A stretch of DNA of 64,000 bases from Eubacteriales bacterium (lineage in GTDB: Bacteria > Bacillota > Clostridia > Oscillospirales > CAG-382), in contig JAQVPJ010000007.1 in assembly GCA_028702135.1 (NCBI GenBank), positions 21,782 to 85,781 of the forward strand. The letters are read 5' to 3'. Every line of letters starts with the position of its first letter. Positions within the stretch are counted from its first letter, which is position 1. Positions 43,938 through 57,889 of the stretch are shown here, one piece after another. The notes beneath the pieces are model-generated. The model was not told where the DNA came from and did no database searches. It saw nothing but the letters and a program-made list of their open reading frames with translations. The translations under genes were made by a program, and so were the position numbers.

Positions 43938-44825
43938 ATGCGTAAATACAAAAAAATCATTGTTCGCGCGCTAATGCTTAGCCTTGCGTGGATTATTTTT
44001 GGAACCTCCGCATATGCGTGGCTTACATCAATATTTAAAAGTGACGTGCCCGCGGGCTTTACGGGGGGTAATTCAAAAAGCCTTGGATTGGAAATAGGTA
44101 CGGTATCAAACGGCGGGACAGAAACGGATCGTATATTTAGTGAAATTGCCTCTGGCAACGAGGAAATACTCATGCTTGGGTTTTCCGAGCCGGAAAAGGC
44201 GGCGGATAACAAATACTATATAAATTTATCGGATATGCAGTTTGGGAATATAGACAGCATTACTGTTTTAAATCCCGAGAACATTGTCTATTTAAGGTTG
44301 ACAATACCGCGGATTTTGGGAAATAATGTTCATTTTAAGCTGTATTACAATAATTATGCTTCCGGGTTCAATCTCAATATTTATGAAAACCTTTACAATG
44401 AGAACAATGAAATCATCGGTAGCGAAAATATATTTGAGGTATTACCCGCAGCAGAAGCCGAAGGACTCAAAAATGTACTGAACGAAACCAAACAAACGAA
44501 AGGCAGCTTTCTGAGATTTCAATATTCTTTAAGCCCGCTTCTTATTGCGAACGGTCAAATGATGGACCAATATGGCGTTGAGGTGTTGGATTTTTCAGAA
44601 GAATACGTCGGTTTTGGCGAATACTCAGAACTTGACACCGGTGAAATCATTGAAACATACAGCGGCGGATATAATAATATTGAAGGCAACGATTTCTATT
44701 ATCTGTATGTCAAAATAACTCCAAACTTAGAGAGCCTCGGTTATGCGTTGCAGCATTTAACCGAATATATACCTTGTTTTATTACCTTTAGCGTCGGAGC
44801 GCAATTTGAGATTTTAAACAGCTGA
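43938..44825 (+). CDS. Secreted protein with SipW-class signal peptide (TasA/CalY-like)
   Basis: Basic N-terminus, hydrophobic helix, GTSAYAWLTS cleavage motif. Confidence 0.7.
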   Translation: MRKYKKIIVRALMLSLAWIIFGTSAYAWLTSIFKSDVPAGFTGGNSKSLGLEIGTVSNGGTETDRIFSEIASGNEEILMLGFSEPEKAADNKYYINLSDMQFGNIDSITVLNPENIVYLRLTIPRILGNNVHFKLYYNNYASGFNLNIYENLYNENNEIIGSENIFEVLPAAEAEGLKNVLNETKQTKGSFLRFQYSLSPLLIANGQMMDQYGVEVLDFSEEYVGFGEYSELDTGEIIETYSGGYNNIEGNDFYYLYVKITPNLESLGYALQHLTEYIPCFITFSVGAQFEILNS

Positions 44826-44861
44826 TGATAAGAGAAACCAAAAAAGGAGAGGGAGGATTAT

Positions 44862-47800
44862 ATGTCTATTTATGTAAATAAACCGGATAGAAAGATTAAG
44901 AAGTCCTTAGCAATGATTCTTCTTCTTTGCGTTTTTATAATTCTCGCTGCTTCTGTCAGTCTTGCTTATTTTTCCAAAAGGGATGTTTATCAAGGCAATT
45001 TCGGCGTAAAGCTTGATTTAATGTTTGACCGTCTTAACAGCACAGCGCTTTATGAATATCAGGTTAATGTGTTAGGCGGTCAGAGCGAGCCCGCCGCAGA
45101 TTGGGGATCGGAGAAAAACCCCTATATCATATCAAACATAAAACACCTATACAACCTATCCTCGCTGCAAAATAACGGTTTTTTTCAAAGTCAGTTTATT
45201 GATTACAATTACGATATCAACGGATATTACATAAACGGGAGCAGCGTTATCCCTTATTTTATTGTAAGTACAACAGACGGTAAACCCGTAACAATCGATG
45301 GTATGGATTTTAATAAAGATATATCGCCTATCGGAACAGATGAATTTCCTTTTGTCGGTTCGGTCAGGGGCAGCTTTTCGGATGGACAATGCCTGGTGGC
45401 AGGTAAAAGCTCCGATGTTTCTGCGCTTTACCGTATAACGGTTTCCGGCAACCCAGCCGCTGTGGATTTCGGTCTTTTCGGCAACATAGGCTATTTGGGT
45501 GAAGAAGCGGAGTTGGGGCAGAGCTTCTCAGGAGTCAATACGACTATATCGGACATAGTATTAGCTGATGTCCAAATAAAAGCAAAGTCCTCTTTATGGA
45601 ATCCGGTTACTTCCTATATAACAGATCATGTCTTTATGTTCAGTAATATGTCAGCTCAGGACAGCCAAAACACGCCTCACGAAAACCACCATATAGGTAT
45701 ACTTGCAGGCCATGTCAGTTACGCTCAGATAGACCGCATAAGCGTTTATTACAGCAGCGACGATATTATAGCTATAGATGTGCTTGATACGACCGATGTA
45801 AGTGGTATTAAAGCAAACTATACGTCGGTATGCGGTATAATGGGTTTTATCGACAATATAAATCCCGAAATGGACGATAATGGAAATGTCACCGCAGGTT
45901 CGGGATCAACTATGGGCGATATTTCATACGGAGTGACGGGCGGCGGCGGTCTTTTATCCGGAACGCAGAGAGGATATGTGCTTGCCAGCGAGATATATGA
46001 GAATTATAAATACGGTAGCGGTACTCCTGACACTGACGGCAGTGTTAACATTTATAATGCAAAAAACGTCGAAGGTGAATCCCTTTGTACGGAATGGGTA
46101 AGAAAAAGGCTCTTTTGGGGAACTGAAAATACCGGCAGATATTATTTTTACGACGGAGTCTTCACCTTTGCTTTATCTAATACATCGGATACTATAGAGA
46201 CCATATGGCCTGATATTATAATTAACGACACCCCGACCTCCTCACTACCCACCTTTAGTCTTGGTTCGACCTCAGATAACGACTGGGAATACGGCACGCT
46301 CGGGACAAGCTACCAGTATTATGCGAACTTAACACCGGTTACAACAAATACTTTTAGCAGCTCAAAAGACTATGTTTTAGGCTGGAAGGATTCAAACGGA
46401 AATCTTTATCTTGCAGATCTTTCGACTCAGGGTACCACAGTTCCGGCTAATGCTATAACAAGCTTCGGTGGTACGGTAACGCCGAATCAAAGTGGATATG
46501 AGATGGTCTGGAATTCTTCCGCTCAACGCAAAACATTCGAAGGTAAGATGATAGGCATAACAGCAGGTACGTCCGGTAAAATATTGACCGGGAAAAGCAG
46601 CGGGAATAAGCTCGGGCTTCAGCGTTATTTATGGTTTATTTATAGGATTTATAACGGAAAAGGCACAGGTTCTAATTATTCTTATGACGCCATACTCGTA
46701 CCGACGGATCCTTATTGGGGAATATCTTATACAATCGGATCGACAACAAAACATTTAACAGCCTCAAGCGAAGGATTCACCTTATCCGATTCAGGCAGCG
46801 GTATAGCGTACCAGATGTATTTTTATGAAGTTGAACTTGGTGTTCGTGCTACAAATGAGGACGATCCGAATGCAAAAAAGGGATTTAGGCAGCTGACAGA
46901 TCCGGTTAATAAACAAACAGTCGATGGTACCGATATAGCTCTGACTGCGGATAAATATGTGTTATGGCCTAACAGCATATTAGATACAGATAACAATGAT
47001 GATGTAACGGTAACTCAGTCTCAAGACCCGGTTTACAGTCTGAAATCCGTTTCTTCGTTAGGATGGAAAAACCGTTTGGGTACAAACCTTGGCGAAACCG
47101 AAAACGGCTCTGTCTCAACTATAGATAAAATGTTCAGAATGACAGGCGAAATACAATGGGGGATGTCAATAAATTTATTTGGCGGCACGTTCAGCTTAAG
47201 TGATAACAATCTTATTTCTGCACCGATAGGAAGTGATGGCACAGCAGCAAATATTCCCATGGGTTGTGTCGCCTTCAAGATGAACAAGGCCACAGAGGCA
47301 AAAGTAAGAGTAATAGTCGCTGTACCTGTAAGCAGCGTCACATCGGAAAACCCCGGTGCGTTGGAACAGACAGAGGACTATTATTTCGGATTATGGTATT
47401 CCGAACCGGCTGGTGACTCCTGGGCACAGGGTTTTGACAAGTCTGATGCAATTAAAAAGTTCGAACTGCCACGCTCACAGCCAAAGGCAGACACGGTTGC
47501 CGGGAAAGCGGATTATATTAATGTGGAAATTGATGCGGACGGGGACGGAACCTCAGAGAGCTACCGCGCATATCTGCAAGGTGAAACAGTTCTCGTGGCA
47601 TATGAGTTTTCTATCAATCAAGCGGGAGTGTATATATTAGGTGCGACAAACGGCCCTATGCAAATTGTATATTTCTCCGCAGACGGTGTTGCGTCAAACG
47701 GACGCGATGGTGTCGGTGGTAGTAACTTAGGCACCATCGATTATGTTTATGATTACAACAACAGTATCATCCCGGTAACTGAGGAGTATACTACAAACAT

Positions 47801-56393: not shown

Positions 56394-57104
56394 CTAAGCT
56401 GTGATTGAGAAAGTAAGCACTATTCCCGCTCCATCGAGGTTGGCTACATTGTTTGTGTAAACAGCGGCATCGTTGCCGTCATAATAGACATAAATATCAA
56501 GCTTTACGGTAGCAGCGTCGGTTACGGTCGCAGCGAGCACATCGGTTGACGGAAACACTGTCGTGGAATCCACCTCAACAACTGCGGTAGAGGAGGCTAC
56601 TACGACTTTAACAGGAGTAATTGTTGTATCACCGGTTCCGTCAACAGCGGTGAATTCCGCATCACTGATGACAAGATCAGTAGCATCATTTGAACCAGTG
56701 GCAAGAGTTACATAAATTGTTTTCTTAATAACATATTGAGAGAAGTTGTCTACTGTTAATGCTGTCTTTGTTCCTTCTTTTAAGGTACCTGCAGTAGGGG
56801 TATCTGCTTTAGCAGTGTACCAATTAGCGTAAGTTTCTGCTGCTGCTCCATTGGCAATGGCATCATGAGCTGAGGGCAGAACATTACCGGAAGCGCTTAA
56901 GTCCGTGGTGATAGTGCCGGCTGTTTGAATAACCGTAGCGCTGGGGTCCTGTCCGATTAAAAGGAAAACGGAATCTGACTTAGCGGTGATGTCCATACCT
57001 GTTGCAGTAACCTGTGTGTTCATTGAGAACCATGCATACGATGCGGTGGATAATAATACCGCGGATACAAGCAATAATGCGAGTGCTGGGAGTAATTTTT
57101 TCAT
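56394..57104 (-). CDS. Probable major fibre subunit with SipW-class signal peptide
   Basis: STASYAWFSMN motif, alternating N-terminal strand TQVTATGMDITAK, C-terminal YVYYDGND...IVLTF; Thr/Ala-rich. Confidence 0.78.
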   Translation of the reverse strand: MKKLLPALALLLVSAVLLSTASYAWFSMNTQVTATGMDITAKSDSVFLLIGQDPSATVIQTAGTITTDLSASGNVLPSAHDAIANGAAAETYANWYTAKADTPTAGTLKEGTKTALTVDNFSQYVIKKTIYVTLATGSNDATDLVISDAEFTAVDGTGDTTITPVKVVVASSTAVVEVDSTTVFPSTDVLAATVTDAATVKLDIYVYYDGNDAAVYTNNVANLDGAGIVLTFSITA

Positions 57105-57160
57105 GATTTTTTCTCCTTAAATAATATTTTTTTATATTTTAATCTATTAAATGCGATTAG

Positions 57161-57889
57161 CTATTCAGCTTCATCTACCTTTAATATATTGATTATCATA
57201 TCAATTTTGAACTGTCCGCCTATGATGCTGTCAACACATTCCGGGTCGTCCCCCTCAAGCCAGATTACAACGGTAAACTTAACGTATTCATCCGGGTTGA
57301 AATCATAGATATTTTTTCGGGTAATAATCGATTCTGTAAGAAATTCGACTGTGCCGAGTTCCGGACCGGTTCCGTCGGTTTTTGTCCTAGCGTAATCTAC
57401 GCTCTCTCCGTTGACGTAAAGTCTCACCCGTACCGCTTTTTCAATGCCAAGGGTTGTGTTCGCTATGTAAAGCATATATTCAACATCAACAATGTTCTGA
57501 CCGGCATTCTTAAGGTAATAAGTGTAAGCGAGGTAATCTTTTCCGCTGTGTTCACCGTTTATGCTGTCTAAATCCATCGGTAGATCTTTTATACTTATAT
57601 TGGTAATATCCTGTGTCGCCTTTGAGTTAAGCCTTGCTGTCGGTTTTGGAAAATCAGGTGTTTCCGAAAGGGTTAGGGCATATTGTACGCTGTCGTATTT
57701 ATCTATCCTGACGGTGTAGCTTCCGAATTTTGTATATAATGCTGATGCGATATATACAACGGCAAGTACTGTTATTAAAACTGCTAATGCCGCCGGTATG
57801 ATTTTCATTAAAATGCTGTATTTCTTTATCTCTTTGGCGCGGCGTTTCAGGATTCTTGGATTATTGTTTCTCAATACTTCCATTTTCAT
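57161..57889 (-). CDS. Membrane-anchored member of the same subunit family (putative base/anchor)
   Basis: Basic N-terminus + TM without AWF/AYF motif; YYLKNAG; C-terminal VVIWLEGDDPEC...QFKIDM. Confidence 0.65.
   Translation of the reverse strand: MKMEVLRNNNPRILKRRAKEIKKYSILMKIIPAALAVLITVLAVVYIASALYTKFGSYTVRIDKYDSVQYALTLSETPDFPKPTARLNSKATQDITNISIKDLPMDLDSINGEHSGKDYLAYTYYLKNAGQNIVDVEYMLYIANTTLGIEKAVRVRLYVNGESVDYARTKTDGTGPELGTVEFLTESIITRKNIYDFNPDEYVKFTVVIWLEGDDPECVDSIIGGQFKIDMIINILKVDEAE

Follow-up and report, generated by a model that had tools for sequence, protein, structure and literature searches.

Donor-strand fibres of the TasA type are found in Bacillus, in Clostridium perfringens, where the subunit is BsaA, and in archaea. 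To our knowledge, no energy source and no dedicated membrane anchor take part in the assembly of these fibres. BsaA, a SipW-dependent relative of TasA, polymerises by N-terminal strand exchange; in the published model the signal peptide keeps the nascent subunit tethered in the membrane up to cleavage by SipW (bioRxiv 10.1101/2024.11.04.621531). AbpA is an established TasA homologue, although structure searches miss its link to monomeric TasA (PMC9245690). CoCoPALM systems have been named in one paragraph, with their description deferred (Bell et al., eLife 2024, PMC11090510); the main text of that paper mentions neither pilins nor subunits like TasA or camelysin, we found no later paper that uses the name, and in the library searched no paper connects DUF2357 with SipW. 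Here we describe a locus in a stretch of 64,000 nucleotides (the window) from a Eubacteriales bacterium (GCA_028702135.1, contig JAQVPJ010000007.1, positions 21,782 to 85,781), in which five proteins, A–E, are encoded beside two SipW-type signal peptidases and a membrane McrB-like GTPase. An initial annotation had read A–E as one family of putative donor-strand fibre subunits. On balance, if not by much, the evidence tips towards A–E being the exported parts of a single surface-fibre system, dependent on SipW, controlled by cyclic di-GMP (c-di-GMP) and resembling TasA and BsaA.

The locus consists of two convergent gene sets; open reading frames (ORFs) of interest are named by letter and all coordinates are window positions (Table 1). 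On the plus strand a near-consensus promoter is followed by A, B and C. On the minus strand a sigma-70-like promoter and two c-di-GMP-I aptamers are followed, in this order, by genes for an EAL-like protein, E, D, the signal peptidase SipW2, the GTPase, a DUF2357 protein, the signal peptidase SipW1, a 76-residue ORF and a GGDEF-EAL protein.

The signal peptides of A, B, C and D terminate in x-A/S-(W/Y)-(F/L). The ORF list and a reading of the sequence place these motifs where the initial annotation had them, in the ORFs at 43938, 44862, 48103 and 56394. That of D ends ...TASYA↓WFSM (the arrow marks the predicted cut), and E has a single N-terminal transmembrane helix without such a motif. When the 3731 ORFs of at least 80 amino acids (aa) in the 1.97-Mb genome were scanned for [STAG]x[AS][WY][FL] after a hydrophobic stretch within the first 75 residues, 12 matched; four of these are A–D, which lie inside 14 kb, or 0.7% of the genome, a clustering far beyond chance. 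A SipW-type peptidase is encoded in the same locus as the candidate subunits, and twice over: both genes exceed the cut-off of TIGR02228 (51.85 bits), the archaeal and endoplasmic reticulum-type signal peptidase model, resemble B. subtilis SipW (NF046067) and keep the SxSM, THR and GDNN motifs. The proposed check against TIGR04088, the model of the SipW-cognate signal, came out negative, since none of A–E reaches its cut-off of 19 bits and the only match is the N-terminus of B at 12.7 bits; by its sequence, the predicted A↓W-F site is a variant distinct from that signal. Assembly in the manner of sortase-dependent Gram-positive pili was considered and rejected: as had been noted from the start, A–E all lack an LPXTG-like C-terminal sorting signal, and they also lack a C-terminal transmembrane segment.

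D is the candidate major subunit. It has 353 homologues, none with a Pfam domain, and A24, W25 and F26 are invariant in the family alignment. In an AlphaFold2 (AF2) model built with 63 homologues (pLDDT, the predicted value of the local distance difference test, 90) a signal helix at residues 4–20 is followed by an unstructured segment, 21–47, and then by a beta-sandwich. Residues 25–47 are nevertheless the most conserved block of the family, with 3.18 bits where the body has about 2.0. A block that follows the predicted A↓W cut and is the most conserved part of the protein, yet disordered in the monomer model, is what one would expect to see if this strand took up its fold only within a neighbouring subunit. 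The best Foldseek match of D is the Sulfolobus thread subunit Saci_0406 (7pnb_A; E-value 8e-3), followed by AbpA (7ueg_A; probability 0.90, E-value 1e-2) and then by CfaB of CFA/I; the template modelling score (TM-score) against 7ueg_A is 0.31–0.37, and these scores are weak to moderate.

The conserved block also bears on another reading, in which the AWF proteins (secreted proteins with the same signal motif, encoded in related loci) would be SipW-processed surface or matrix proteins, such as adhesins or binding proteins, that do not polymerise; the shared N-terminus would then be a peptidase recognition signal only, and E would be independent of them. The mature domains are indeed unrelated by sequence, the number and size of AWF genes per locus vary widely (0–6 genes, 200–2400 aa) and adhesin modules, for instance BspA leucine-rich repeats (LRR), are found in giant members. 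A cleavage signal alone is insufficient, however, to explain conservation that reaches about 20 residues past the cleavage site and in D exceeds that of the folded body. The fold matches, moreover, are specifically to donor-strand filament subunits, and C is linked to TasA and camelysin (see below). We regard the non-polymerising alternative as unlikely.

E was proposed to be a membrane base that keeps its transmembrane helix. Its family comprises 1465 homologues, again without a Pfam domain, and is far better conserved than that of D; identity among the listed matches is 54–76% for the E family and 31–57% for the D family. The AF2 model of E (35 homologues; pLDDT 83) consists of a long helix, residues 18–52, that leads directly into a beta-sandwich. 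The family alignment contains no conserved AxA site at the end of the helix. On the cytoplasmic side, residues 14–26 carry a nearly invariant LRRxAxEIKxYR (R16, A18, E20, K22, Y24 and R25 at 90% or more), which suggests a conserved cytoplasmic binding partner. The lack of a conserved cleavage site, together with the conserved tail, points to a permanent N-in membrane protein, and E very probably retains its helix, as first proposed. Foldseek matches E to self-complemented FimA (E-value 2e-5, probability 1.0), AbpA (2.4e-4, 0.99), the pilin domain of PapG and the TasA fibre 8aur_A (1.5e-3, 0.95), with TM-scores of 0.27–0.34 against 7ueg_A and 8aur_A. D and E are predicted beta-sandwiches whose best matches in the PDB are donor-strand filament subunits, AbpA and TasA among them, although the scores are weak to moderate.

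In a type IV-pilin-like arrangement, by comparison, the N-terminal hydrophobic helix would be retained, packed in the core of a helical filament and extruded by a nucleoside triphosphatase (NTPase). The operon does encode an NTPase; Pfam scans of the D family, in which all matches are at noise level, include weak Arch_flagellin and arch_flag_Nterm matches (E-values of 0.06–0.08 in one or two members), and one E homologue is labelled FlaG-like by the Joint Genome Institute. Against these hints, there is no G↓FxxxE prepilin site and no gene for a prepilin peptidase, PilB or PilC in the locus, and the peptidases that are present are type I enzymes of the SipW kind. The signal peptides have the classical n-h-c layout, in which the hydrophobic core precedes the conserved site, no N-methylation-motif family matches, and the bodies of D and E are modelled as all-beta sandwiches, not as the alpha/beta pilin fold. 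Such an arrangement appears very improbable.

Three partial links between the proteins were found. D- and C-family profiles align with 97.5% probability (hhalign; E-value 7e-12) over the signal peptide and the first 18 or so mature residues, with the common consensus (G/A)WFSxNxxVxAxGMxV, and when the C-family hidden Markov model (HMM) is run over the genome, D is the only other significant match (E-value 2.5e-9). Going by these profiles, the N-termini of C and D are homologous. C is also connected to TasA through PF12389 (Peptidase_M73, TasA/camelysin; gathering score 22.5 bits). A six-frame scan of the whole genome with this model left a single sub-threshold trace, at the C-terminus of C (11.2 bits), and 8 of 38 representatives of the C family match it at an E-value of 0.1 or better (best 1.8e-6; the two inspected score 15 and 17.5 bits). 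These matches span the ectodomain and a QNxYQ C-terminal motif, and C is, on the evidence of its family profile, a member of a divergent branch of the TasA/camelysin superfamily.

At the other end, the C-terminal motif that the initial annotation had seen in D (IYVYYDGNDAAV...GIVLTFSI) and E (VVIWLEGDDPECV...QFKIDMII) proved real; it lies in the best D/E profile alignment, whose hhalign E-value of 0.029 is not significant alone. In the form hxhW[LIV]EGxDx[DE]C...hxhxh (h, hydrophobic) the motif reappears in AWF proteins of related loci, and intermediates connect this form to the YYDGxD of D. A phmmer search of a 385-ORF set with the ectodomain of E matched AWF proteins at E-values of 2e-5 to 2e-2. 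Over the genome, an HMM of the motif matched only D and E, not A, B or C, and comparing C with E by hhalign gave no significant alignment. The single cysteine of the W-x-E-G-x-D-x-[DE]-C motif is present in E (C218) and in many AWF proteins (L007, L024–L028, L030, L032, L084), and D and its close relatives have valine at this position; a metal site, a thioester or an inter-subunit link are candidate roles for the cysteine.

A and B have only the signal motif in common. A has one homologue in 5.8e9 proteins and none in 40 related genomes; an A-like gene also stands in the same cassette in locus L057. The D-family HMM matches A in the signal region only (E-value 0.0023), and A and segments of B, each searched as a single sequence against the three family profiles, matched only there. 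Compared with the C family, a three-sequence alignment of A reached a probability of 59.5% in 21 columns (LNPENIVYLRL against the LxPGDxV region), which is not significant; as a sequence resemblance it is suggestive. B has no Pfam or PDB match, and its closest giant relatives likewise have no Pfam match; the B-like gene of L057 encodes 1892 aa (E-value 9.5e-98). Other giant AWF-type proteins in related loci (L028:12680-18751, 2023 aa; L031:9633-16808, 2391 aa) carry, respectively, six BspA-type LRR_5 repeats (E-value 4.7e-93) and a weak IgA1-protease N-terminal-like region. Such modules fit the role of a tip adhesin, and by analogy B may be the adhesin or tip component of a fibre.

That A, B and C belong with D and E, as was first supposed, is upheld by gene order in other species. 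Further copies of the D operon turn up in gut metagenome contigs, and in G010, a genome of the same family but another genus, one operon (locus L007, C4:592000-611900) contains EAL, E, six AWF genes, SipW, GTPase, DUF2357, SipW and GGDEF-EAL; the six, located between E and the first SipW gene, are tandem paralogues of 253, 249, 275, 276, 1243 and 259 aa. In L057, EAL, E, a D-like gene, an A-like gene (E-value 1.3e-7), the B-like gene and a C-like gene (2e-6) all lie on a single strand. These one-operon layouts indicate that the A-B-C cassette, convergent in the window, is part of the same system.

The invariant core of the operon consists of a degenerate EAL protein, E, SipW, the membrane McrB-like GTPase, DUF2357 and SipW. 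In 44 loci with at least 9 kb of sequence downstream of E, exactly one E gene is always present (44/44), an EAL-like gene lies upstream of it in 42, SipW is found in 41 (two copies in 32), the GTPase in 38, DUF2357 in 37 and at least one strict AWF gene in 27. The two SipW genes flank the GTPase/DUF2357 pair, an order kept in 37–41 of the 44. No other protein of the operon is as well conserved as the GTPase, whose G010 orthologue is 64% identical. The GTPase of the window matches the McrB equivalog model at an E-value of 9.6e-6 and has GISGTGKT as its Walker A motif and GTANNDDST at residue 385, which is the NxD signature of CoCoPALM GTPases (PMC11090510) and not NxxD. CoCoPALM GTPases also carry an FtsB-like N-terminal fusion of transmembrane segment and coiled coil; in the window, reading by eye reveals hydrophobic segments and a heptad-like LLEEIADLHRDVIKLTKEKERILNLK stretch within residues 1–125. 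As judged from gene order and sequence, the candidate fibre genes are embedded in a conserved operon around a McrB-like GTPase and DUF2357 of the CoCoPALM kind, a point absent from the initial annotation.

This core invites the view that E, the two SipW peptidases, the GTPase and DUF2357 form a membrane machine whose main task is something other than fibres, for example signalling, envelope remodelling or a task derived from defence, with the AWF proteins as optional cargo or accessories. Conservation of E and of the GTPase far exceeds that of D, some Ruminococcus-type loci have no AWF genes nearby and McrBC relatives are usually defence systems (PMC11090510). However, inspection of the AWF-less loci covered only 10 kb downstream of E, a strict AWF gene is adjacent in 27 of the 44 loci, E is itself pilin-like in fold and has its C-terminal motif in common with AWF proteins, and two SipW genes are sensible only given dedicated exported substrates. 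We hold a machine of this sort to be distinctly unlikely. In the Ruminococcus-type loci a conserved TM/coiled-coil protein (TM, transmembrane) of about 150–175 aa follows the second SipW gene; the 76-residue ORF of the window may be its counterpart.

Genes of the E family were confirmed in at least 574 stretches of a species-representative genome set, in gut and rumen Clostridia. Their distribution is patchy, with 13 carriers among 399 genomes sampled across the class. Some carriers are in culture (Eubacterium ruminantium ATCC 17233 and Ruminococcus sp. FC2018 and YE71; L084, L092 and L096), so that experiments are feasible. A c-di-GMP-I aptamer precedes the EAL-E operon in two of seven other loci checked (L037, 9095-9179; L053, 8974-9049), each of which also has a second, divergent aptamer, and none was found in the Ruminococcus and Eubacterium ruminantium loci checked. 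Riboswitch control therefore seems to be lineage-specific, whereas the EAL-like gene is nearly universal.

Table 1. Features of the locus in window coordinates (arrows mark predicted signal-peptide cleavage)
Feature	Position	Strand	Remarks
tRNA gene	43024-43097	+	69.6 bits; between upstream dehydrogenase gene and acetyltransferase-like ORF preceding A
Sigma-70-like promoter before A-B-C	43873-43901	+	11/12 consensus match, extended -10; consensus match only
A, 295 aa, secreted, signal end ...GTSAYA↓WLTS	43938-44825	+	fold unknown, near-orphan
B, 1072 aa, giant secreted protein, signal end ...SVSLA↓YFSK	44862-48080	+	candidate tip/adhesin component
C, 260 aa, secreted, signal end ...DDTLS↓WFAY	48103-48885	+	GTG start at 48103; divergent TasA/camelysin-superfamily member by family profile
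GGDEF-EAL membrane protein, final gene of core operon	48995-51235	-	orthologues in same position in L002, L004, L007 and many more loci
76-aa small ORF, coiled-coil-like, between SipW1 and GGDEF-EAL	51264-51494	-	ORF reading
SipW1, SipW-type signal peptidase I	51514-52077	-	TIGR02228 71.9 bits; NF046067 E-value 2.7e-21
McrC-like DUF2357 protein, coiled-coil tail of about 130 aa rich in E/A/R/K	52037-53695	-	PF09823 E-value 4.8e-8
Membrane McrB-like GTPase	53760-55403	-	putative TM + coiled-coil N-terminus, Walker A GISGTGKT, NxD motif GTANNDD
SipW2, SipW-type signal peptidase I	55450-56148	-	TIGR02228 69.6 bits; NF046067 E-value 1e-31
D, 236 aa, candidate major fibre subunit, signal ASYA↓WFSMNTQVTATGMDITAKS	56394-57104	-	beta-sandwich (AF2)
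E, 242 aa, N-in membrane-anchored beta-sandwich, candidate fibre base	57161-57889	-	conserved cytoplasmic tail
Stand-alone EAL-like protein, first gene of operon	57861-58676	-	PF00563 E-value 1.3e-12
Two tandem c-di-GMP-I riboswitch aptamers, operon leader	58683-58868	-	RF01051 59 and 61 bits
Perfect sigma-70-like promoter, upstream of riboswitches	58878-58906	-	12/12 consensus match

Several results weigh against a common fibre built from A–E. The claim that the five are one family fails by sequence: pairwise BLAST among A–E gives nothing significant, and neither do hhalign comparisons of the mature domains of D and C, E and C, and D and E. Pfam and NCBIfam scans of A–E return no family match, and no relevant PDB sequence was matched by B, D or E or by the family profiles of C and D. 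None of A–E reaches PF12389 (no match at an E-value of 0.1 or better) or TIGR04088, and the latter model has zero matches among 38 C-family and 63 D-family members. Support from fold is confined to the models of D and E, with A and B outside it; the Foldseek matches of these two models have low TM-scores (0.27–0.43) and modest E-values, and TasA is not among the top 50 for D. Since the top matches of E are self-complemented pilins, its groove may be filled in cis. Finally, four loci of the Ruminococcus type (L072, L085, L092, L096) have the core EAL-E-SipW-GTPase-DUF2357-SipW and no AWF gene within 10 kb downstream, so that E may have a role independent of fibres. The original reading of A–E as fibre subunits is accordingly left standing in part: the adjoining SipW genes, the predicted folds of D and E and the shared operons speak for it, while membership of a single sequence family and a match to PF12389 or TIGR04088 are lacking.

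If A–E do form a fibre system, c-di-GMP would act on the leader riboswitches and so control transcription of the E-D operon. A–D would be exported by Sec and cleaved by SipW after the Ala or Ser that precedes W/Y. Cleavage would free the segment W/Y-F-S-x-N-x-x-V-x-A-x-G-M-x-V to become a donor beta-strand in the sandwich of a neighbouring subunit, as in TasA, BsaA and AbpA. D would repeat as the major subunit, and an N-terminal strand of the same kind would let A, C and the giant B enter as minor or tip components. E, uncleaved, would anchor the base of the fibre in the membrane, where it might either accept the strand of D or donate its own membrane-proximal strand (residues 54–62). Its cytoplasmic tail (RRxAxEIKxY) might in turn couple the base to the degenerate EAL protein, to the McrB-like GTPase with DUF2357, or to both.

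A bolder proposal, which we consider doubtful though not far-fetched, is that the locus encodes a Gram-positive pilus of a third kind, in which a TasA-like fibre built by donor strands grows from the uncleaved E and has its assembly, anchoring or release driven or gated by the CoCoPALM GTPase under c-di-GMP control. We know of no organism with a donor-strand pilus coupled to nucleoside triphosphates. If the fibre reading of the locus were confirmed, CoCoPALM systems, so far only named, would gain structural subunits, the D and E families would gain a function, and the role of a restriction-enzyme-derived GTPase in the biogenesis of surface fibres would be open to experiment.

Among described systems, TasA/TapA/SipW of B. 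subtilis (PF12389, 8AUR) has in common with the locus an operon-encoded SipW and, by prediction for the locus, secreted subunits of beta-sandwich or jelly-roll fold and a conserved N-terminal strand right after the cleavage site. The donor-like N-terminus extends to accessory proteins, as it does to TapA; the model of E matches 8aur_A and the C family matches PF12389. The two differ in that A–E of the window fall below PF12389 and TIGR04088 and that the predicted cleavage context is A↓WF here but A↓AF in TasA. Two SipW peptidases, a very probably uncleaved anchored E, a membrane McrB-like GTPase with DUF2357 and c-di-GMP elements are found in the window alone.

BsaA/BsaB/BsaC-SipW of C. perfringens (TIGR04090; PMC7395162), the nearest model studied by experiment, is a SipW operon as well; it is clostridial and encodes a large accessory protein beside several secreted proteins of the TasA type. 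In BsaA a disordered N-terminal segment turns into the donor strand, which is what we propose here. The only TIGR04090 match, however, is one member of the C family (E-value 0.077). The (near-)invariant columns of the D alignment hold no standout acceptor-side Lys or Glu, and thus no sign of an N-E-K isopeptide triad, although no search was aimed at the triad. BsaA secretion, furthermore, uses type IV pilus proteins, whereas the window encodes a McrB-like GTPase.

The archaeal AbpA (7UEG) and Saci_0406 (7PNB) are among the best structural matches of D, with 7PNB first and 7UEG second, and 7UEG is also matched by E. In both, signal peptidase I cleaves first, and donor strands at the N-terminus then link the beta-sandwich subunits. 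The matches share 10–13% sequence identity, and the archaeal operons contain no SipW, E-like anchor or McrB-like GTPase. Chaperone-usher pilins (FimA, CfaB, the pilin domain of PapG) offer the same incomplete Ig-like sandwich completed by a donor strand; they are Gram-negative, depend on a periplasmic chaperone and an outer-membrane usher and show no sequence relation, so that the resemblance is one of fold and principle only.

The text in which CoCoPALM systems were named (PMC11090510) contains neither the set of subunits nor the E anchor nor the control by c-di-GMP described here for the window. The likeness to CoCoPALM lies in the core: an NxD McrB-like GTPase with a putative N-terminal transmembrane and coiled-coil segment, a coiled-coil McrC/DUF2357 partner and associated signal-peptidase genes together fit the published description. 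In this locus a conserved operon apparently combines the donor-strand principle with an anchored subunit, c-di-GMP elements, a membrane McrB-like GTPase and two SipW peptidases.

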